From contig BK006936.2 of assembly GCA_000146045.2 (NCBI GenBank), forward strand, positions 64,001-128,000: 64,000 bases of DNA. Reading direction: 5' to 3'. The translations under genes and the position numbers were made by a program. The notes beneath the pieces were generated by a model. That model was given only the letters and a program-made list of their open reading frames with translations, searched no databases and was not told where the DNA came from. The stretch comes from TPA_inf: Saccharomyces. Its lineage: Eukaryota. This document shows, one piece after another, positions 5,713 to 58,752 of the stretch. Position 1 is the stretch's first letter; every line of letters begins with the position of its first letter.

Positions 5713-7166
<1,454 letters not shown>

Positions 7167-7865
7167 CTATGATACTGTTTTCACTCCCAACTAGTGTACT
7201 GCGTTGTTCTTTAAGTTCGATAGCGAAATTTCTTTAGCTTGTTTACAGCACCCAGCAACCGCACACAGAATGTGACGGCAAATGCATTTTACATGGAAGG
7301 CTATCTACAAAACAGCAATAAAGAGTCATGTAAGATTGGGAAATCTCTAATGTGACATTCCATACTTGTTGCAACAATTTTGGGATGCTTCTGCGTCGTA
7401 CGACCCTGTATTTACCTTCTCTAGCTCATCGCTTCCCAGGGTCCACGTTAATTTTTCAATTTTTTCTTGCGTGTCGAAGATTCAGGTCTCGAGAAATTTG
7501 TCAAAAATTTTTCACTAGATATTAAGAACTATATACATCGAATAAGATGCCAGCACAGAAGAGATAGGCAATCAGTTTAGATACTACAGACACTATCCAA
7601 TAGTGCAAAGCAAAAGCAGCATAGAAAAAAGAGAATCCCGTTTCCAGCTTTTTCTCTTTTTCCCATTCGTTTTTCCTGATCTTTTTTTCTGCATCGTGGC
7701 ACCTAGAACAAGAGGTACCTTCCATCCTTCGCTTAATATTTGATACGACTTTTTTGATTTCCATTATTATTATTTGTTACTATTATTATTTATCATTTGG
7801 GTTTCGGTTTTTTGTAATAATTTTCTTTTTTTTTTTTGGCTCTATTTCACTAAGACATCGTATAT

Positions 7866-8972
7866 ATGCCAGGCCAGATAATCAGCATTCCGTTTTTGTC
7901 GCAGAACGAGGACATGGATAAATACTTGTTGGAGTACCGCAGTTTGAAGCTCCTTCATCAGTCCAGTAATTCCTTCCAGTCTCACAATGCGCCCTCCCAC
8001 CAGTCGAACTACCACCCCCATTACAATCACATGAAATACAACAACACTGGTAGCTATTACTATTACAACAACAACAATAACAGCAGTGTAAACCCACATA
8101 ACCAAGCTGGTCTACAATCCATTAACAGATCTATTCCATCGGCCCCGTACGGGGCTTACAACCAGAACAGAGCTAATGACGTACCATATATGAATACCCA
8201 AAAGAAACACCACAGATTTAGCGCTAACAATAATTTGAACCAGCAAAAATACAAGCAATATCCCCAGTATACGTCCAATCCAATGGTTACTGCACATCTG
8301 AAGCAAACGTACCCTCAACTGTACTACAATAGCAACGTCAATGCTCACAACAACAACAACAACAGCAACAACAACAACAACAACAACAACAACAGCAACA
8401 ACAACAACAATCTTTACAACCAGACGCAGTTCTCCACGAGGTACTTCAACTCGAACTCCTCTCCCTCGTTGACTTCTTCCACTTCTAACTCATCCTCTCC
8501 ATACAACCAAAGCACCTTCGAATACATTTTGCCGTCAACTTCGGCAGCTTCCACAAATTTATCGTCGTCATCATCAAACAACTCTATGCACACCAACCCA
8601 ACCACTGCAACATCGACATCCGCCGATTTAATCAATGATTTACCCGTGGGCCCCACGTCCAGTTCGCTTATCTCGGATCTACATTCTCCACCAACTGTAT
8701 CTTTCCTACCAGCAAGCCAAACCCTGCTCATGTCCTCCACCACATCTAGCTCTATTGGCACCAACATAAACCCACCGCAACATTCACCATCCCCATCGCA
8801 AAGGGAGGATTTTTCGACGGCACCAGTGAACATGTCTTCGTCCGCATCACTCTTGATGAATGATTCTTCTTTAGGATGGGGGTCTAACCACATGAACGTA
8901 TCTTCATCCTCTCAACCAGCATCATCAAGACCCTTTGGCATTTGGAATACTGACATGAGCGTTTGGAGTTGA
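7866..8972 (+). CDS. YBL081W: YBL081W, uncharacterised Asn/Ser-rich low-complexity protein
   Basis: 368 aa with ATG at 7866. It is highly N-, S- and Y-rich with a poly-Asn run encoded by an imperfect (AAC/CAA)n tract. It has a strongly prion-like composition. Confidence 0.8.
   Translation: MPGQIISIPFLSQNEDMDKYLLEYRSLKLLHQSSNSFQSHNAPSHQSNYHPHYNHMKYNNTGSYYYYNNNNNSSVNPHNQAGLQSINRSIPSAPYGAYNQNRANDVPYMNTQKKHHRFSANNNLNQQKYKQYPQYTSNPMVTAHLKQTYPQLYYNSNVNAHNNNNNSNNNNNNNNNSNNNNNLYNQTQFSTRYFNSNSSPSLTSSTSNSSSPYNQSTFEYILPSTSAASTNLSSSSSNNSMHTNPTTATSTSADLINDLPVGPTSSSLISDLHSPPTVSFLPASQTLLMSSTTSSSIGTNINPPQHSPSPSQREDFSTAPVNMSSSASLLMNDSSLGWGSNHMNVSSSSQPASSRPFGIWNTDMSVWS
8346..8411 (+). repeat. Imperfect (CAA/AAC)n tract encoding the poly-Asn run in YBL081W
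   Basis: The sequence cacaacaacaacaacaacagcaacaacaac... encodes NNNNNSNNNNNNNNNSNNNNN. Confidence 0.85.
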
Positions 8973-25125: not shown

Positions 25126-25977
25126 TTTGTAACTGTAATAGAAAATTTAATGACGCTTGTTAGTAAAATAAAGAACGTACAAAAGTTGCGGAATTTTTTT
25201 CTTATCTTGAAATATGCTTTGGTTTCTTTTCATCTCTTCTTGTGAAAAACTCGGCGTTTCATAAGAGGCTTGATTTTTTGGGTACACAAAGGATTCAGTT
25301 TAGTGCACTGCTCCTGTCACAATTTATATCATCCCTTTTAGTTAAGTTTACTTTTTCCACTATCTATTCCATTCAAAGAGAGGTCCTGTAGCATTCAAAA
25401 TAATATGTAGTTCCATTACTCATATGACCATAGCACATACTTTTTGTCCTGGTGTGTTTATAACGTCTTCTTGTGAGTACCAAAAAGCAAATGGCAAGTG
25501 TAATTTCCTATAACTTTAAGATAGGCCTGTAAATAACGTATATGAAACAGTTCCATCCCGTAACACCATGAACACTGCGTAAGAGAAAGCCCTCAAGCTT
25601 TCCCAGCGATGCTCGTGTGTAGGACCGAACATGGAGGGGGGAACTAGGCCCAGCACGGGTTTGGCGAGGCCGCTCTGCTCGCAGCTCAGGATTCTAAAAG
25701 GTTATTCCGCTGAGAAAATCAGAAAATAGGAACTTCTCACGCAATAATTTTAAAGTTGATGAAAAAGGAAAATTTGTAAAAGTGTAAGGGTGTTAAAGAG
25801 GGTGTATGGATGTAAAGTCACAAAAGTTAGAGCAGATGAAAAAGAAATGGGTGGAGACAAATCCGAAAAAGGACCTATATTATCGCTATAAAGAGCTTCT
25901 CATCGCTTTTTTTTTTCAAAGACACATACATACCACGACTGTAAGCACATCATTTGTACAATACATTACCAGCTGAA

Positions 25978-48800: not shown

Positions 48801-49427
48801 TCAATACAATTTCAAATCACCTGTTATTTGATCCAATACTGCTTTTGGAGCAGGTCCTAAACCCAATACGGTGGCACTTCCCGCAGCAATCTGTGTTCTA
48901 CCAGCATCATGAATAACTGCTGCATTCACCCCAAGTGATATAGCCTTCGCATACAACTCGTCCATTGTAAACTTATCTGGACATTTCAACGTTATTTTAG
49001 CCTGTCCAGCATTTAGCCATCTTTGTGTCATAATTGGGTTGTATGAAGCACGCGCGGGGTTTGTAGCAATATGTCTAAAACATGACAATGCTGCGTGACA
49101 GCATTGTGCCGCTATTTTGCCCTTTGTCATGCCAAGATCTTGACGAATCACCAATGCCATCCTAACTTCTCCAGGTATATCATTCAATGAAGTGGACTCA
49201 ATATCTTCGTCCTCATCGCTCTCATCTTCGCTTTCACTTTCCTCCTCATCAGTGTCATTGTGTAGCTTTCCTTCCTTCATTTCTTTAGAACGCAGTAAAG
49301 TAGCTGAGGATTTCTTAGTTGATGATGCGTTCGACGTACCCAACTGGTAACCCACGGCAAAGGAGATTGCGGTGAAAGTAGCCCATAAAGCTATGGTGTA
49401 ATTCGAAGAAACTGTCATCTTTTCCAT
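48801..49427 (-). CDS. PTH2: PTH2, peptidyl-tRNA hydrolase 2 (mitochondrial outer membrane)
   Basis: 208 aa with ATG at 49427. It has an N-terminal transmembrane anchor and a C-terminal PTH2 domain (MALVIRQDLGMTKGKIAAQCCHAAL). Confidence 0.9.
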   Translation of the reverse strand: MEKMTVSSNYTIALWATFTAISFAVGYQLGTSNASSTKKSSATLLRSKEMKEGKLHNDTDEEESESEDESDEDEDIESTSLNDIPGEVRMALVIRQDLGMTKGKIAAQCCHAALSCFRHIATNPARASYNPIMTQRWLNAGQAKITLKCPDKFTMDELYAKAISLGVNAAVIHDAGRTQIAAGSATVLGLGPAPKAVLDQITGDLKLY

Positions 49428-49761: not shown

Positions 49762-51168
49762 ATGGGTCAAATATTGTCCAATCCAATTATCGACAAAGAG
49801 CATCATTCTGGTACGGACTGTTTGACAGCGTTTGGACTATGTGCCATGCAAGGCTGGCGTATGTCCATGGAAGATGCCCATATTGTTGAGCCGAACCTTT
49901 TGGCTGAGTCTGACGAGGAACATCTCGCATTTTATGGTATATTTGACGGTCATGGTGGTTCTTCTGTAGCGGAGTTTTGTGGCTCTAAAATGATATCTAT
50001 ACTGAAAAAACAGGAGAGCTTCAAGAGCGGTATGTTAGAGCAGTGCTTAATAGATACCTTTTTAGCTACAGATGTTGAGTTGTTGAAAGATGAAAAATTA
50101 AAAGATGACCATAGTGGTTGTACAGCAACTGTGATATTGGTATCTCAATTGAAAAAGCTACTAATTTGCGCCAATTCCGGTGATAGTAGAACAGTTCTAT
50201 CTACTGGTGGTAATAGTAAAGCAATGTCATTTGATCATAAGCCCACATTGTTAAGTGAAAAATCTCGTATTGTAGCTGCTGATGGTTTTGTTGAGATGGA
50301 CCGTGTTAATGGAAATTTAGCGTTATCAAGAGCCATAGGTGATTTTGAATTCAAATCTAACACAAAATTGGGACCTCATGAGCAAGTCGTTACATGTGTT
50401 CCTGATATCATTTGTCACAATTTGAATTATGATGAGGATGAATTTGTTATTTTAGCATGTGATGGTATTTGGGATTGTTTAACTTCTCAAGAGTGTGTTG
50501 ACTTGGTTCACTACGGTATAAGTCAAGGTAATATGACGTTGAGCGACATTTCATCTAGAATCGTAGATGTTTGTTGTTCACCCACAACTGAAGGCTCAGG
50601 AATTGGCTGTGATAATATGAGTATTTCCATTGTTGCTTTACTAAAGGAAAATGAATCTGAGTCACAATGGTTTGAGCGTATGAGATCAAAAAATTACAAT
50701 ATCCAAACGTCTTTTGTCCAAAGAAGGAAAAGTATTTTTGATTTCCATGATTTTTCGGATGATGATAACGAAGTGTTCGCAATAACCACCAAAAAATTAC
50801 AAGACCGCTTGAATCGTAGTAAAGATAATGACGACATGGAAATTGATGATCTTGATACCGAATTAGGCAGCAGTGCTACTCCCTCAAAGTTATCAGGTGA
50901 GGATAGAACTGGCCCTATTGACTTGTTTTCGTTGGAGGCTCTATTAGAAGCCGGGATTCAAATAAGGCAGAGGCCCAGCTCCGACAGTGACGGCAACACT
51001 TCTTATTTCCATGGTGCTTCTTTATCAGATATGTTGGCATCTTTAAGCAATGCGGCTGCAGGAGAAACAGAACCTAATGATGCTGATGATAACGATGATA
51101 ACGACGGCGAAGAAAACGGCAAGAATGAAAATGCGAAGAAGGGTTCCAAGATTGAAGAAATTGAATAA
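49762..51168 (+). CDS. PTC3: PTC3, type 2C protein phosphatase
   Basis: 468 aa with ATG at 49762. It has the PP2C motifs [10 protein letters not shown] and LACDGIWD and an acidic C-terminal tail. Confidence 0.92.
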
Positions 51169-51572: not shown

Positions 51573-52829
51573 TTACTCTCCAAATATCTTACAGGTCGTC
51601 TTCCACGTGGTATCTATCAAAGTAGCCAGATCCACGTCCTTGACTTCCGATACGACAATTGCTACTTGTTCCATATTACAAGGCTCATTACGGCCCTTGA
51701 CCATGTAAAGTTCTTCTGCATTCAACTTGTCAGCGAGCTTATTTTTCTTAACGGACTTGAATGCAGGGTATTCGAAATCCCTAACCTCCTGGTATTTGGC
51801 TAAGTACTGGAAAGATGCATGCGTTCTTTTAATCTCACACCACGGAGCATCTGTCTCTAATAACAACCTTTCTGTTGGTATTTGCTTTACAACAGCTAGA
51901 TTTTCCTCGGTTCTCAACGAGCAACCGTTTACTCCTATGAAGATGTTGGGTGATAAGTTCAGTAATTTCTGCAAATCTATCGCAGAACCAGTGAATGAAT
52001 GGACCACTAGTTTTCTATCTGGATGAAATTTGTAAAACCCGCTAGACGACGATGCACCTAACTTTTGTAGCTGAAAGGTATCCCTCTCATCAGTGAACCC
52101 GGCAATAAATCTTTCCAATATTTGAACAAAATCGTCACATGCGCTTCTCATATGCAGAAACAATGGATAGCTGCTGAGTTTATCGTTCAAACAACTTATT
52201 TTCAGTTGCTCTTCAAAAAAAACCTTTTGCATCTCTTTAGAACTATAGTGAAATCTGTCGTAGTCCAACCCGATCTCACCAATTGACCTGAAACTTGTAT
52301 CATGAGGTTTTGCTTGCTGATTCATCAAATCATAAAGCTCTTTCAGTTTACCCTGTGCAAAAGATGGATTACTAATAACTTTAGCATATAGAGACTCATT
52401 ATATGCTTCATCCATGGAAGGGTTATCAATAGAAGCGCTAGCCTTGTCCCCTTGACTAGCATCCGCAAACTCGTTAACGCAACATGGGTGAACACCTATT
52501 GTGTGATACAGCTTTAACGGGCTAAGATCTTTGACGCTGCTTACCAACTCAATGGCACTTTGAGACTCCGCTATGGATGATCCTGTAACAAGGGCATTTT
52601 TCACGTGCCTCTGAGCAGCACGCTCTAATAATTTTACATAATCTGCTGGATGGTACTGCTTACCATTGTAAATACCGTGAAACATAGGATCTGTCAGATT
52701 CAATCCAATATCATAGTATTTCAGCGGAGAATCCGTGGCAGTTGATGTCATGCTATAATATTGTGTCAAAATTGGTTTCCAGAGCCTAGAACAACTTTTG
52801 TTCGAGGATTTCAATAAGATGCCCCACAT
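51573..52829 (-). CDS. YBL055C: YBL055C, TatD-family Mg-dependent 3'-5' exonuclease/endonuclease
   Basis: 418 aa from the ATG at 52829 (MWGILLKSSNKS...). The ORF-track start at 52856 is a TTG. It has the TatD-type metal-dependent hydrolase fold. Confidence 0.85.
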   Translation of the reverse strand: MWGILLKSSNKSCSRLWKPILTQYYSMTSTATDSPLKYYDIGLNLTDPMFHGIYNGKQYHPADYVKLLERAAQRHVKNALVTGSSIAESQSAIELVSSVKDLSPLKLYHTIGVHPCCVNEFADASQGDKASASIDNPSMDEAYNESLYAKVISNPSFAQGKLKELYDLMNQQAKPHDTSFRSIGEIGLDYDRFHYSSKEMQKVFFEEQLKISCLNDKLSSYPLFLHMRSACDDFVQILERFIAGFTDERDTFQLQKLGASSSSGFYKFHPDRKLVVHSFTGSAIDLQKLLNLSPNIFIGVNGCSLRTEENLAVVKQIPTERLLLETDAPWCEIKRTHASFQYLAKYQEVRDFEYPAFKSVKKNKLADKLNAEELYMVKGRNEPCNMEQVAIVVSEVKDVDLATLIDTTWKTTCKIFGE

Positions 52830-53290
52830 ATAACTATAACAGTACTGGCGCCTCAAAAAAATGCCTTGGCAGCGAAAGTGTCCACCTTTAGTTGTCCATT
52901 GCTACCAGGACATCACCACTGGGCCCTTCCAGCATGCTGGAAAGATTGTTCTTAGAAGAGTGCTGTTCTAAGTAACCCGGCGTTAGTAGGGGCTAAGCCT
53001 TCTAGAAGGCCGGAAAAGGCTCAGAAATGCCTGCAGTGCAAAGCTTTTCAGGAACGTTACTAGCGCAAGTCTTCTGGCTGCTGTTTAGCAACCTCTTTGC
53101 AGGTATTTCGCAGCGGGATTTCGCAGGTGTCTTGCCTAGCGTATCAACACTTAGTAGCAGTTAGGTTCTAAAGTTAAACTCCACTTCCGTTCTTCTTCGA
53201 GTTCCTTTTTGAGCGGTTTGGCCTATCTTGTCTCATCATCTTGTTAGTGTGCGACGTTATCTGTGGGTGAGAGAGGCTATTTTTGGTCCG

Positions 53291-53380
53291 GTGAAAAAAA
53301 AATTTTTTCTCTGCTGAGAGCTGAAATTTGAAAATTGAGATGAGATGCGATGCGATGAGATGCGAGACCAATGCGATGAG
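53291..53380 (+). promoter_or_regulatory. RRPE (AAAAATTTT) plus two PAC motifs (GCGATGAG) in the TOD6 upstream region
   Basis: GTGAAAAAAAAATTTTTTC lies at 53291..53310. GCGATGAG occurs at 53352..53359 and 53373..53380, embedded in GATGAG/GCGATG-rich sequence. These are 210 to 300 bp upstream of the TOD6 ATG. Confidence 0.6.
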
Positions 53381-53588
53381 ACACTTTTCTACTTCCTTAC
53401 ACAGAAGTCGTGTATAGTTTTTGTACGTTGATATTAATAAAGGCTTTTCATATCATTTTGTTTTCAGGTAAACAAATCTGGCAAATCTCCACTGCTTGAG
53501 TCATTAAAACTACTCACTCAAGAAGGCATATACACGACAGTGGGTAGAGAAAAGAATATATCACTGTTCTTATTGAAGTTCCCTCGCG

Positions 53589-55166
53589 ATGACGTTGCCG
53601 AAACTCAGTAGCGTTTCTGTTTCATCAGGACATGTTAGTGCCAACTCACATGGTTTCTCAATACTAAGCAAACACCCTCACCCAAATAATCTTGTCCATT
53701 CCCACTCACTTTCTCACACAAATGCGAAGAGCCACCTGCCTATCAGTAGCACTAGCACTAAAGAGAACAGCACGAACAAGGAGGAGGCGGAATCACTCAA
53801 AAAAAACAACCCCTCTTCTTGGGACCCTAGTGATGATATCAAGCTCCGCCACCTGAAAGAGATCAAGAACTTGGGCTGGAAGGAGATTGCACATCATTTC
53901 CCAAATAGAACTCCTAACGCTTGTCAATTCAGATGGAGGAGACTGAAATCAGGCAACTTAAAGTCTAACAAGACCGCAGTTATTGACATCAATAAGCTAT
54001 TCGGCGTGTATGCGACTGGTGATGCTACCCCATCCGCGGGTACTCCGTCTGCGGAAGAAGCCGTAAAAGAGGAAGCTGTTGAGGATGAAGATATTACTGC
54101 AGGTTCTAGTGCTATCGAGGATTCTCCACCGGATTTCAAGCCATTAGTTAAGCCTAAATACATGGACAGAAAACTGATAACTCAAAGATCTACATCAACA
54201 TTTTCGGACCATGAGCCACAACACACGAAACCAAGGAAACTGTTTGTTAAGCCAAGGTCCTTCTCTCATTCTATAACAACCAACACGCCTAATGTAAAGA
54301 CTGCTCAGCAGACAAATCTAAGCCTTTATAACACTACTTCAGCAAAGACAAATAAAGCTGTTAATTCCAATGATTATGAGAATATTGGTCTTGTGCCTAA
54401 AATTATTATCAGGTCTAGAAGGAACTCCTTTATTCCTTCAACTCAAATCCCTCATTCAACGACGAAGACTAGGAAAAACTCGCATTCCGTAATTTCTTCT
54501 AGAAGATCATCTTTTAACATGATGCATTCAAGAAGATCATCCTTCAACTCTCACGCTCCTACGGAGCCTATTTCTAGAAGAGCTTCCTTGGTAGTTAGCC
54601 CGTATATGTCACCCAGAAGGTTATCTACATCGCAATCCGTTCATTATCATCCACAGCACCAATACTATCTTAACCCCATAGCGTCTCCCAACTGCAAGAC
54701 AGACCACGCAAATGACAAAATCACGCACACGAGGACTTTCTTAGATATGCAAAAATTCGCTAATAAACACCCGTGGTCTAGAGAAGATGATGAAGTGCTA
54801 CTTAACAATACGAAGGACAAACAAAACCATTTGTCGCCGCTAGAAATTTCTATTGTTCTGCCTAATAATAGATCCGAGTTGGAAATCCAACAAAGAATGG
54901 ATTATTTAAAGAGAAAAGGACGTGTAAGTGGTTTTCATACAAATGAAGGATGCAAAGACGAGGAGGAGGAGGATGACATTGACCCACTGCACAAGGAGAA
55001 TGGCATTAACACGCCATCGCAGCAATCGCAAAATTACGGTATGTTAGAGGCTAAACATGATAATCCAAAGTCTAGTGAGCTTTCTTCTATGACCAGCGCA
55101 AATGACATACGCAATGAGCAAGATGAACTTCCAGGTATAAATTCTATCTTTAAAAATATATTTTAA
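53589..55166 (+). CDS. TOD6: TOD6, Myb-like PAC-motif-binding repressor of ribosome-biogenesis genes
   Basis: 525 aa with ATG at 53589. The single Myb/SANT repeat is WDPSDDIKLRHLKEIKNLGWKEIAHHFPNRTPNACQFRWRRL. Confidence 0.9.
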   Translation: MTLPKLSSVSVSSGHVSANSHGFSILSKHPHPNNLVHSHSLSHTNAKSHLPISSTSTKENSTNKEEAESLKKNNPSSWDPSDDIKLRHLKEIKNLGWKEIAHHFPNRTPNACQFRWRRLKSGNLKSNKTAVIDINKLFGVYATGDATPSAGTPSAEEAVKEEAVEDEDITAGSSAIEDSPPDFKPLVKPKYMDRKLITQRSTSTFSDHEPQHTKPRKLFVKPRSFSHSITTNTPNVKTAQQTNLSLYNTTSAKTNKAVNSNDYENIGLVPKIIIRSRRNSFIPSTQIPHSTTKTRKNSHSVISSRRSSFNMMHSRRSSFNSHAPTEPISRRASLVVSPYMSPRRLSTSQSVHYHPQHQYYLNPIASPNCKTDHANDKITHTRTFLDMQKFANKHPWSREDDEVLLNNTKDKQNHLSPLEISIVLPNNRSELEIQQRMDYLKRKGRVSGFHTNEGCKDEEEEDDIDPLHKENGINTPSQQSQNYGMLEAKHDNPKSSELSSMTSANDIRNEQDELPGINSIFKNIF

Positions 55167-55334: not shown

Positions 55335-55709
55335 ATGTTACATGTATATGCTTATATCCAATATATACCCATCGCCGCTTATTCTTCGTCATCCTCTATT
55401 AGAGTTATTTTTCTTCTTTTTCTGACTCTCTCCTTCCTTATGTGGCTTTCTATATCGTTTTCATCCTGCTCTTGTCCTTTTCTCTTCCCATCCTCATCAT
55501 CATCACTGTCTTCTTCATATGTGTCTTCCTCCTCATCATTTTCTTCTGATATTTGCTCATCCTCAATGTCATCATCAAGGGTAAAGTCTTCGTCTTCGTC
55601 TTCATCTTCTTTGGCGTTTTCACCTACATATAATTCAGTATCTACATCGTTTTCTACTTCATCCTGCTCTAAACTTGATATTCCAGTATCGTTTCTCCTA
55701 GCTGCATGA
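55335..55709 (+). CDS. YBL053W: Dubious ORF YBL053W, overlapping the SAS3 3' end on the opposite strand
   Basis: 124 aa from the ATG at 55335. It is Ser-rich low complexity, antisense to the acidic tail of SAS3. Confidence 0.2.
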
Positions 55710-57874
55710 TTTCCAAGTGGTGTTTCGGAGTTTTTAATAGTGAAGCAGAGCTCCCAATGAGTTTCTGTACTAAATTTTGATCTTGGTATCCCTTTGCGAT
55801 CATGGATGCTTTCCAGCACTCTTTTTTCCGCTTGATAGATTAATCTATCATTATTTGTGTTCTTATAATCACACATATACTCTGTTAAGGAGGAAACAGT
55901 GTCTTCAAAAAAATCAGTAGCAGGTACTTCCGGTTCTATGATATTGTTTACATGAAGCTTGGATGTTTTGTGCTCACTACTTCTTCTTCTTCTTCTTCTG
56001 CGTTTATTATGTGCTCTACTGTTGTTATAGTTTTCTATATGTGTGTTATTCGAAATTACCGGAGCCATAGTTTCATTTGTAAGAGCTTCGTCCGCTAATG
56101 CGGTGGGTTCTAAGTTCATCATCCCATTTATACCAAATGACGGCCCTAATATAATAGGTTCCCACAATAGTTTGTCATATTTGACGCGAGGATAGTTTTT
56201 TGAGCTCCAAGTTTTGTAAATATTTTCAATCCTGTTCCAAGAATCGATTTTAATAATATAGTTGAAATCATCCAAACTGGATAATGAGCGTGTTTTATGG
56301 CGATACAAAACTTGAAGTTGTTCCAATCCAAACACAACGTCTGTTGGTATCATTCCTGTTAGTTTAGCGATATCGTTTAGGCTAACCTGCTGAAAAGTAT
56401 CTTCATTTTTATTATTTGATCGACGTCTAGCACTGTCTCTTAATTTTAATAGCACTTCAGCACATTTTATCTTCCAAAACGTTCTGTAAGTCAATAATCC
56501 TAAATCCGACAATGGTTTTTCAGGAGTTCCAAATTTTGACTCCTTTCTGGATAATAAATATGAAAATTCCATCAAAAACTGACCATATCCTTTCCTCTGG
56601 TATATGGGTAGAGTTAAAATACAACTTAGGTTATAGTCATTGGAGTTGAATTTTTCCTTGGAGAAATAGCCTACGAAATGGAATTTGGCTGCGTTTTGAT
56701 AGGGATGGTTCTCTGTATCCTCTCTCTCCGTTAGAATATAGAATATAAACGGTTCAACATCGTAATACAAAGTCTTAGAATTGATAAAACATTTTGCCAA
56801 CAGGCAAAGATTTTGACAATACAAGACATTCTCCCGCCCATCAATTTCCCAAACAGACAGCTTACCGTCGCGATAAATTTCATTTCCGGGGGGCTTAAAA
56901 GTTAGACACTTTAGTTGGTGTCTATAAAAAGTATATCGAGAAGTCATATATTTTAGGCAGAACTCACATATAAAAACCATTTTATTTTGGTTGATGTGTT
57001 CCGGAAAAGGAGATGTATACCAAGGTTTAATTTCATAATTTCGAAGAACAATGTATTCTATCTGGGAAAACCACACTTTATTTTTGATTCTTGGTACTTT
57101 CCCTTTCCTTTTTTTCCTATCTTCGTTTTCTTGATCGGTTTCATTATGATTGCAAAGTGATACGTTACCATTAATGTACGTTGCAGACTTAGAGTTTTCT
57201 AAAAATGTAAGAAACTTTATTTTATCTTCCCAGGTGGGTAAAGTTCTTTTTGTACTGAAATCTTTCATTTTTTTTATTGTTCCGCCGTATGGTACGTACC
57301 ATTGCCAAGAATCGTTATCCCTGAATGGCGTATTATCAGAAGAATATGGGTACTCCATGTTTTCGGTTGCTAGATCCCATGTTTGCTTTAACCTGTTAAC
57401 TCTTCTTTGAAACCCGATTAGAGGACCGGATGATGTTATATTTTTGTTAACTAAAGGTGCTATGACTGAAGATTTAGATATTAGTCTTTCAAAATTGAAA
57501 AATTTGATAGAATCATACTTAATTCTAACCTTCAACTCCTCGCTGACTTCAATATTAGGTTCAATAATGGGGAAACTTACTGCTCCCATCTTATTGTCCC
57601 TATTAACGATATTTTGAGAAGAATTTTCTGACGCAAGTTTGGACTGCTGGGAAATCAACCCTTTTTTTATTTTATTAAGGCCTTTATCAGACCGAACACT
57701 TCCTCTTATTCGATGTGATATACTGGCATCGGAGTTGAATAGTCGTCTTGTAGTTCTATGTCCATTTGTATCGCTTCTGACAAATTGAGAATGTATCAGA
57801 TCATCGATCTCTAAGTTTTTCAATAATGCATTTTTTTTGGGTTTTGGCGATTCGTCGTTTGCTGTTAATGACAT
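55379..57874 (-). CDS. SAS3: SAS3, MYST-family histone acetyltransferase (NuA3 catalytic subunit)
   Basis: 831 aa from the ATG at 57874 ([18 protein letters not shown]). It has the MYST C2HC zinc finger ([21 protein letters not shown]), the acetyl-CoA motif [16 protein letters not shown] and an acidic D/E C-terminal tail. Confidence 0.92.
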
Positions 57875-58752
57875 TATCTGCAAATTATACGGAGACTAAT
57901 TAATGAAGAAGGAAGAAGAGAGAGGGCGGTATGAATAACACCTATGAGAAAAGAATAGCAATGCTTTTCCTTTTTTACCTTTTATATTCGTTCTTTCTTC
58001 TTTTGCCTCTTTTAATATGCTTTGTTTCTGTGCTATTTTCCCGACTCTTTATTTCAAACAATGAAGCCCCCAATTAATCAAGAACCACCAAAATAGCATG
58101 TCAGTTGAACACTCAACGACTAAAAAAACGAATAATTTCTTGTTCAATTGGCCTGAACGTTTGACTATGAAACTTTCTGCTCTTCTCTGATCATTGTAAA
58201 CAAAGAAATGTCAATAAATTATTGTTACCCGACTTTCTATATACTACAAATACCGCCAATGATGCAGTGAGCAAGATATCAATTAATGCAAAAACAATAT
58301 CGAGTAAGGTAGAAACATCTCTGTGATTAAACATCGTACATATAAATACCATATATAAAAGTATGTGGGAAAAGAACGTTCAAAAAAAAAAAGTAAGTAG
58401 TAGGTTAAAAATAAAATCTCAAAAGAGGGAAAAAAAAAAAAGAGGGATAATTTTGGCTTGATTACATTGCGTTACTTAAAGTAGCCTCATCATTCATTCA
58501 TTATCATCGTTTCATCGACATTAGGTGACGTTTCTCAGTAAAAATTAACTTCATCATGATCATTAATTTCATATTCATATTCGGTTATTTTTTTTTTTTT
58601 TTATATTTTTTTTCAATGGTGTTTTTGATGGTTTTTATTATATATATATATTTTTTTATCTTTTATCTTGTGTAAGCACCCCTCATTACTTGTATCGTGC
58701 GATATACAAATACCAAACAAACTCTATAATCATAGAATAATGGAAGTATATA

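Follow-up and report, generated by a model that had tools for sequence, protein, structure and literature searches.

Why should the gene for a transcriptional repressor carry, in its own promoter, the site that the repressor itself reads? The question is raised by TOD6 (YBL054W; coding sequence 53589-55166, plus strand, 525 amino acids) on the left arm of Saccharomyces cerevisiae chromosome II, which encodes a Myb-like repressor that binds the PAC (polymerase A and C) motif of ribosome biogenesis (RiBi) promoters. We analysed the 64,000-nucleotide stretch of DNA that holds this gene (the window, whose positions are used throughout), in which a sequence-only reading had placed two exact PAC octamers and a ribosomal RNA processing element (RRPE) about 210-300 bp upstream of TOD6. 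All were recovered as claimed, the motifs spanning 209-298 bp from the ATG, and we consider it likely that 53294-53383 is a RiBi-type cis-regulatory module of the TOD6 promoter, coupled to growth and with negative auto- and cross-regulation. The recognition motif of Tod6 (PAC, or GATGAG; PMC5416754, PMC13084002) thus lies within the promoter of its own gene, as for a negatively autoregulated factor, and judging from these sites Tod6 probably shuts off TOD6 under stress.

The elements follow a fixed order: the RRPE with its poly(dA:dT) tract comes first, a PAC-like octamer and two perfect PACs lie 30-80 bp downstream, and the gene follows, with everything oriented toward TOD6. PAC site 1 (GCGATGAG, 53352-53359, plus strand; 237 bp upstream of the ATG) agrees in its extended form (GCGATGAGAT, 53352-53361) with all 10 positions of GCGATGAGMT, the extended consensus as quoted by Bosio et al. 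(PMC5416754). PAC site 2 (GCGATGAG, 53373-53380, plus strand; 216 bp upstream; extended GCGATGAGAC, 53373-53382) agrees with 9 of the 10, and the two sites start 21 bp apart in S. cerevisiae. The proximal promoter therefore contains two exact octamers, where at least one is looked for in a RiBi promoter. A third, PAC-like octamer (GAGATGAG, from 53337) matches at 7 of 8 positions, its GATGAG core (53339-53344) lying 15 bp upstream of PAC 1; it is directly adjoined by the RRPE-like TGAAAATTG and belongs to TGAAATTTGAAAATTGAGATGAG (53322-53344, plus strand), where RRPE-like TGAAA(A)TT repeats lead into the octamer. The RRPE core proper, AAAAATTTT (53298-53306; at -291 relative to the TOD6 start), is palindromic, reads on both strands and lies on the upstream side of PAC 1 at a distance of about 46 bp. 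It is embedded in a palindromic A9T6 sequence (53294-53308) that is also a poly(dA:dT) tract and a candidate site for the repressor Stb3 (PMC5416754) and for the activator Sfp1, whose sites carry gAAAATTTTc (bioRxiv 10.1101/420794).

The GATGAG/GCGATG-rich stretch that had been remarked on around these sites is real. It consists of a pentanucleotide (GMGAT)n array (53336-53365, plus strand) giving overlapping PAC and PAC-like sites, which Tandem Repeats Finder (TRF) reports as five GMGAT units with a 5-bp period (53336-53362) and a repeat search as a 15-nt tandem (53336-53365) together with an 11-mer, ATGCGATGAGA, that occurs twice, 21 bp apart. Immediately 3' of PAC 2 stands a further conserved block (CTTTTCTACTTCC..., 53384-53410, plus strand) with the invariant run TTTCTACTT (53386-53394), possibly the core promoter. 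A consensus scan found no ATG between PAC 2 and the TOD6 start, and the idea of an upstream open reading frame (ORF) was dropped. The start codon itself lies inside GCGATGAC (53585-53592), which matches PAC at 7 of 8 positions and of which CGATGAC is retained in five of six species; we regard this match as probably a coincidence.

The PAC octamer occurs five times in the window against 0.90 expected, a count reached in none of 100 shuffles, and scaling the window rate to the 759-bp spacer upstream of TOD6 gives a Poisson lambda of ~0.011 and a probability of ~6e-5 for at least two sites. The RRPE 9-mer is not enriched by itself (8 seen in the window, 7.6 expected), and its significance lies in its place upstream of PAC, which is homologous in all six Saccharomyces species compared. 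On these sequence counts and positions, the PAC/RRPE sites far exceed chance.

Constraint on the sites was assessed from an alignment of the YBL055C-TOD6 spacers of S. cerevisiae, S. paradoxus, S. kudriavzevii, S. mikatae, S. arboricola and S. eubayanus. Invariant S. cerevisiae positions make up 34% of the spacer overall and 7-30% of long stretches of it, against 70-97% at 53310-53400. Three of the four longest invariant runs are PAC-bearing blocks, the kind of phylogenetic footprint looked for in RiBi promoters: the longest is the RRPE-like/PAC-like block TGAAAATTGAGATGAG (53329-53344), PAC 1 lies inside TGCGATGCGATGAG (53346-53359) and PAC 2 inside TGCGATGAGACA (53372-53383); the remaining run, AAGCCTTCTAGAAG (52995-53008), is on the YBL055C side. 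In each of the six promoters a pair of PAC octamers, one further GATGAG core and AAAAATTTT occupy homologous positions, and PAC lies 175-238 bp from the ATG in the other Saccharomyces species. The (GMGAT)n array is near-invariant although it is repetitive, and within the A9T6 tract the A-run is invariant and the T-run variable. Such alignment patterns indicate that the PAC/RRPE sites are strongly constrained by purifying selection in Saccharomyces. The spacing of the two PACs (21, 21, 21, 10, 20 and 21 bp) stays near whole helical turns, the sole indels within the cluster being deletions of 11 bp (S. mikatae) and 1 bp (S. arboricola); a constraint on helical phase is suggestive, resting on two independent events only.

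The same alignment disposes of two other candidates. The 9-bp direct repeat to which the sequence-only reading had drawn attention at 53105-53126 is present as placed (ATTTCGCAG at 53105-53113 and 53118-53126), within a 13-bp tandem duplication of GG[T/G]ATTTCGCAG (53102-53126, plus strand). Its relevance did not hold up: S. cerevisiae and S. paradoxus alone have the duplication, which arose in their lineage, and the alignment shows a 13-column gap in place of one copy for S. kudriavzevii, S. mikatae, S. arboricola and S. eubayanus. The unit is weakly unusual by count (2 in the window, 0.57 expected; 9 of 100 shuffles reach 2), and with one copy absent from four of the six species it was rejected as a regulatory element; the duplication is lineage-specific and probably without function or bearing on the PAC finding. 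Likewise, a perfect 10-nt inverted repeat (53407-53416 and 53529-53538) was dropped as a 5'-leader structure, being unconserved.

Beyond Saccharomyces, PAC accompanies genes that are TOD6-syntenic, that is, with a TatD gene upstream and SAS3 downstream. Kazachstania (Huiozyma) naganishii has three octamers 377-682 bp from the ATG in a spacer of 1.5 kb, Monosporozyma servazzii has one at -120 and Nakaseomyces glabratus has two at -144 and -99, while Kazachstania africana has three GATGAG cores (one of them CGATGAG) at -302 to -276 and two more in its 1.3-kb spacer. The N. glabratus gene (P0097; locus L017 on metagenome contig ERZ1036435 NODE-89) is labelled 'DOT6' in its source, but it sits between the TatD gene and SAS3 and is therefore the TOD6-side copy by synteny, not the DOT6-side one. 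Two species that diverged before the whole-genome duplication make up the pre-duplication sample. Torulaspora globosa, with a single copy in the order PP2C, TatD, gene, SAS3, has two PACs and a consensus RRPE, and Lachancea thermotolerans has one PAC at -133 of the TOD6 orthologue with no adjoining TatD gene; PAC at this gene is therefore older than the duplication. The distances in M. servazzii, L. thermotolerans and N. glabratus fall within or near the 75-125 bp upstream of the ATG that is usual for PAC (PMC5416754), a placement that corresponds to about 50-100 bp from the transcription start site. The 73.5 kb of DNA flanking the assembly-derived loci (L001-L012) contain no PAC octamer, and since the motif is also kept in Lachancea without TatD, it travels with the TOD6-type gene and not with the TatD neighbour.

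The association has a phylogenetic limit. No PAC octamer was found within 800 bp upstream at eleven metagenomic loci of more distant budding yeasts, all of which offer 700 bp or more of sequence on that side, a soft negative, as these loci were placed by nearest protein (CTG-clade Clavispora/Diutina; Hanseniaspora/Saccharomycodes) and their start codons assigned mechanically. A universal PAC loop across budding yeasts was rejected on these loci, and the claim of a feedback loop is therefore confined to Saccharomycetaceae, of which PAC at the Dot6/Tod6-family gene looks, from the loci compared, to be a specific feature.

Published work fits regulation through these sites. PAC is bound by Dot6 and Tod6 and RRPE by Stb3; the three recruit Rpd3L and are antagonised by TORC1, Sch9 and PKA (PMC5416754, PMC6547411). 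Kocik et al. (EMBO J 2026; PMC13084002) noted three GATGAG motifs upstream of TOD6, which 'may be a direct target of Dot6/Tod6 repression'; they found it 'strongly repressed with RiBi genes' under several stresses and a member of their Dot6-dependent, GATGAG-enriched Cluster d. YBL054W had also fallen within a bicluster enriched in ribosome-biogenesis genes (PMC2396181). Albert et al. (bioRxiv 10.1101/420794) reported TOD6 as a novel target bound and controlled by Sfp1, in an Sfp1-dependent 'RiBi-like' group; their Sfp1 sites from chromatin endogenous cleavage (ChEC) carry the RRPE-like palindrome gAAAATTTTc, and the TOD6 link was taken to hint at 'possible feedback mechanisms'. The proposal that PAC in TOD6's own promoter implies auto- or cross-regulation is thus supported by conservation, by the synteny of PAC with the gene, by RiBi co-repression and by Sfp1 targeting. 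Cross-regulation by Dot6 is better supported than strict self-repression by Tod6, because under NaCl stress Dot6 is dominant whereas nuclear relocation of Tod6 is weak and its contribution small (PMC13084002). The wiring is in this sense already known as a suggestion, Sfp1 control of TOD6 having been published in 2018-2019 and the GATGAG motifs with probable Dot6/Tod6 targeting in 2026. What we add is modest and incremental: the invariant PAC blocks, their retention at TOD6 and loss at DOT6, their pre-duplication origin and perhaps a constraint on helical phase.

Several observations weigh against a RiBi-type, self-repressing module. The PACs, at 216-237 bp, lie about 100 bp beyond the usual range of ~75-125 bp upstream of the ATG; the 11-mer RRPE consensus TGAAAAWTTTY has no exact match at the TOD6 promoter; a scan of the six species for consensus sites of Abf1, Reb1, Tbf1, Rap1, TATA, Cbf1 and others found none beside the RRPE, where most RiBi promoters, though not all, have a general-factor site; and no full PAC octamer occurs in the K. 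africana TOD6 spacer. Between glycerol and glucose at steady state, TOD6 mRNA reportedly changes by <2-fold (PMC6687784). Given its small contribution under NaCl, strict self-repression by Tod6 may be condition-specific, for example to TORC1 inhibition. A literature search, within which the main Dot6/Tod6 chromatin immunoprecipitation (ChIP) papers did not fall, found neither Dot6, Tod6 or Stb3 occupancy nor PAC mutagenesis at the TOD6 promoter, and one for explicit 'autoregulation' of TOD6 returned nothing relevant. Dot6 ChIP in PMC2659770 covered YDL063C, MRD1 and YTM1 only, and TOD6 mRNA is unreadable in the tod6 deletion strains of published work. None of the atypical features (PAC distance, lack of a general-factor site, inexact RRPE, steady mRNA) contradicts function. 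As a set, they suggest that the module may matter mainly in transitions.

The most serious alternative accepts that the PAC/RRPE cluster is functional but has it work mainly in growth activation and nucleosome exclusion, through Sfp1, poly(dA:dT) and maybe a PAC-dependent activator, with only a small effect of Dot6/Tod6 on TOD6. The reported binding and control by Sfp1 speak for it, as does the location of the RRPE within the A9T6 tract, and the similar steady-state mRNA levels just mentioned point the same way. At NSR1, moreover, mutation of consensus PAC and RRPE failed to mimic the dot6 tod6 phenotype (PMC6547411), and the presence of the motifs is therefore no guarantee of an effect. In Candida albicans, a yeast beyond the PAC-bearing group, Dot6 is reported to activate ribosome biogenesis (bioRxiv 10.1101/401778). 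Against all this, TOD6 is strongly co-repressed with RiBi genes and clusters with Dot6-dependent, GATGAG-enriched genes (PMC13084002), and conservation is strongest at the PAC octamers, not at the A/T tract. We therefore judge this alternative unlikely, though it deserves to be kept in mind.

A second possibility is that the module serves YBL055C, or both genes, instead of TOD6 specifically. The two genes do have one 759-bp spacer between them, and PAC can work in both directions and is found on the minus strand in other genera. The sequence-only reading had remarked that YBL055C is no canonical ribosome-biogenesis gene, and the view that it is not the likely target was borne out: the TOD6 ATG is 216-237 bp away from the PACs and the YBL055C ATG 523-551 bp away, and the YBL055C side of the spacer has conserved blocks of its own (a palindrome resembling a heat shock element (HSE) at 52995-53008 and, in five species, a Reb1 consensus). 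The K. naganishii octamers and the K. africana GATGAG cores are nearer to TOD6 than to TatD, and in L. thermotolerans PAC is kept at -133 where no TatD gene is adjacent. This makes the involvement of YBL055C highly improbable. Weakest of all is the notion that the PAC matches are a functionless by-product of a slippage-made (GMGAT)n microsatellite, to which we give next to no credence: an array with 5-bp and 15-bp periods does lie at the same place (TRF, repeat search) and GCGATGAG is formed at the junctions of GCGAT with GAGAT, but the array is near-invariant in six species while its flanks are ~10-30% invariant, PAC 2 lies outside it, in five other genera the orthologue is preceded by unrelated and non-repetitive PAC octamers, and none occurs in the 73.5 kb of flanking DNA, so that the notion is in effect refuted by conservation and by those non-repetitive octamers.

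The paralogue DOT6 (YER088C) lacks the module. Its promoter was compared in S. cerevisiae (L033), S. paradoxus (L006) and S. eubayanus (L012), and in none of the three is there a PAC octamer, an RRPE or AAAATTTT. All three have a single minus-strand CGATGAG, conserved between -47 and -55 (...CTCATCGAA...) and located at -55 from the ATG at 1187 in L033, at 2446-2452 in L006 and at 2454-2460 in L012, as well as stress response elements (STRE; CCCCT). This CGATGAG could be the 'repressive feature' countered by Msn2/4 as proposed in PMC13084002. The two loci are ohnologous, with a PP2C gene upstream of both (PTC3 at TOD6, PTC2 at DOT6). The DOT6 locus runs PP2C, DOT6, Sec61-beta, and the TOD6 side keeps the ancestral order PP2C, TatD, TOD6, SAS3, which is that of the single-copy T. 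globosa locus. By comparison of the three Saccharomyces species with the two pre-duplication species, the ancestral cis-elements have been retained in TOD6 and are gone from DOT6. This asymmetry matches the published split in expression, in which YBL054W is 'conserved' and YER088C 'divergent' with C. albicans orf19.2545 as the reference (expression conservation 0.78 and -0.25; Tirosh and Barkai, 2007; PMC1895995), and the finding of the Gasch laboratory that DOT6, and not TOD6, is bound and maintained by Msn2/4 during stress.

We regard as possible, while stopping short of calling it probable, a history in which a PAC feedback loop ancestral to Saccharomycetaceae predated the duplication, TOD6 kept the RRPE/Sfp1 input and the helically phased PAC pair, and DOT6 lost the module except for a PAC core near -50 and gained control by Msn2/4 through STRE. 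The outcome would be a relay of two repressors, with Tod6 as the arm that is stocked by growth and extinguishes itself, and Dot6 as the arm that is maintained by stress and also represses TOD6.

How might such a circuit operate? During growth, Sfp1 acting through the RRPE would drive TOD6 alongside the RiBi regulon, with the Tod6 protein phosphorylated and inactive, and a latent repressor would thereby be stocked in proportion to RiBi output. When TORC1, Sch9 and PKA signalling drops, dephosphorylated Dot6 (and, depending on the condition, Tod6) would fill the PAC cluster and Stb3 the RRPE, Rpd3L would be recruited, and under stress or starvation TOD6 would be silenced together with its targets. 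Dot6 and Tod6 accumulate in glucose and have a half-life of ~30 min after its loss (PMC6687784); both are also reported to be degraded when nutrients limit (PMC8924686). Since the Tod6 protein is short-lived, the Tod6 arm should become self-limiting through negative auto- and cross-regulation, and sustained repression would be carried by DOT6, maintained by Msn2/4. The depth and duration of the shut-down of ribosome biogenesis that follows a fall in nutrients or in TORC1/PKA signalling are set by Dot6 and Tod6. If the circuit holds true, the pool of latent repressor follows growth rate and repression limits itself, which would help to explain the transient, pulse-like repression of RiBi genes in stress and the differing roles of the paralogues. 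The comparative result also gives an evolutionary frame to the published TOD6/DOT6 expression asymmetry.

The genes around the module are as first named, PTC3, YBL055C, TOD6 and SAS3, and the naming is right because the orthologue names agree and the domains PF00481, PF01026 and PF01853 are kept in every orthologous locus. The ORF of the PP2C phosphatase PTC3 (PF00481) occupies 49762-51168 on the plus strand, YBL055C, a TatD-family nuclease of 418 amino acids whose orthologous neighbours carry PF01026, occupies 51573-52829 on the minus strand, and the MYST acetyltransferase SAS3 (PF01853) occupies 55379-57883 on the minus strand. The Tod6 ORF has 99% identity to a large S. cerevisiae cluster (P0001), its orthologues are named YBL054W or Tod6p in their sources, and it contains PF00249 and PF13921. 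YBL055C and TOD6 are divergent, with the single 759-bp spacer in common. An RNA gene hidden in this spacer was rejected, as an Rfam scan of 52700-53700 gave one match at chance level (E = 0.91; 15 bits, where the gathering score is 70).

Other elements of the spacer lie toward YBL055C. The six-species invariant AAGCCTTCTAGAAG (52995-53008; context 52989-53030), about 170 bp upstream of the YBL055C ATG, is a perfect TTCTAGAA HSE-like palindrome, which could be the site of an HSF-type factor for YBL055C; a second TTCAGGAA, at ~53047, is found in four of the six Saccharomyces species. In the other five Saccharomyces species (L001-L005), the only Reb1 consensus of the scan, which reads GTTACCCG or ATTACCCG on the minus strand, stands ~590-620 bp upstream of TOD6 and ~140 bp from YBL055C; at 52968-52980 of S. 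cerevisiae it is altered to TAAGTAAC, and only a 7/8 match, GTAACCCG, occurs on the opposite strand. A mid-spacer block, C.GTTTAG.AACC (53081-53093; GTTTAG invariant), has no match among the factor consensuses scanned.

PAC octamers elsewhere in the window are found in varied settings. An exact octamer at 25899-25906 (minus strand) stands about 75 bp upstream of a short ORF (MSTYDEIEIEDMTF...; Kti11/Dph3-like, ATG ~25978), a canonical distance for RiBi genes. Another, at 7425-7432 (minus strand), accompanies a perfect minus-strand RRPE, TGAAAAATTTT (~7502-7512), and an RRPE-like tract (~7450-7466). The group (7425-7512) lies between ORFs at 5751-7163 (minus strand) and 7866-8972 (plus strand), and the order of RRPE then PAC faces the minus-strand gene, ALG3 by position; by its motif arrangement it is a RiBi-like module beside genes not usually placed in the RiBi regulon. 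An octamer with two GATGAG cores (49212-49250, minus strand) lies on the sense strand of a 208-amino-acid ORF at 48801-49427 (PTH2 by position), where it is probably a coding coincidence of acidic or Met-containing codons.

How does the TOD6 promoter compare with known systems? Canonical RiBi promoters (NSR1, DBP7, MRD1, YTM1; PMC5416754, PMC2659770) likewise have the RRPE upstream of PAC and multiple PACs, their motifs are kept across sensu stricto species, and their genes are repressed with the regulon in stress. TOD6 departs from them in the distance of its PACs from the ATG (216-237 bp versus 75-125 bp), in the spacing of RRPE and PAC (~46 bp versus ~25 bp) and, unlike ~80% of RiBi promoters, in having no Abf1, Reb1, Tbf1 or Rap1 site upstream of the RRPE. 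Its product also differs in kind, being a repressor that reads PAC and not a ribosome-assembly factor, so that membership of the regulon would close a feedback loop. The account by Albert et al. of how Sfp1 controls TOD6 and MRS6 (bioRxiv 10.1101/420794) concerns the same gene and promoter, with gAAAATTTTc matching the tract at 53294-53308, and a readiness for rapid shut-down was proposed there; that account includes activator input only, and PAC sites and repression of TOD6 by Tod6 are not discussed.

DOT6, the twin gene for a PAC-binding repressor at the ohnologous locus with its own PP2C gene upstream (PTC2 versus PTC3), differs in having no PAC octamer or RRPE, one CGATGAG, STRE elements, maintenance by Msn2/4 and a divergent expression class.

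In the negative autoregulation motif, a transcription factor represses its own promoter. The TOD6 promoter resembles this arrangement in holding several conserved copies of the repressor's own site. It differs from the simple form in that TORC1, Sch9 and PKA gate the repressor post-translationally, so that the loop would close only under stress, and in that the site is common to the paralogue Dot6, which would make the circuit a mixed auto- and cross-regulatory one.

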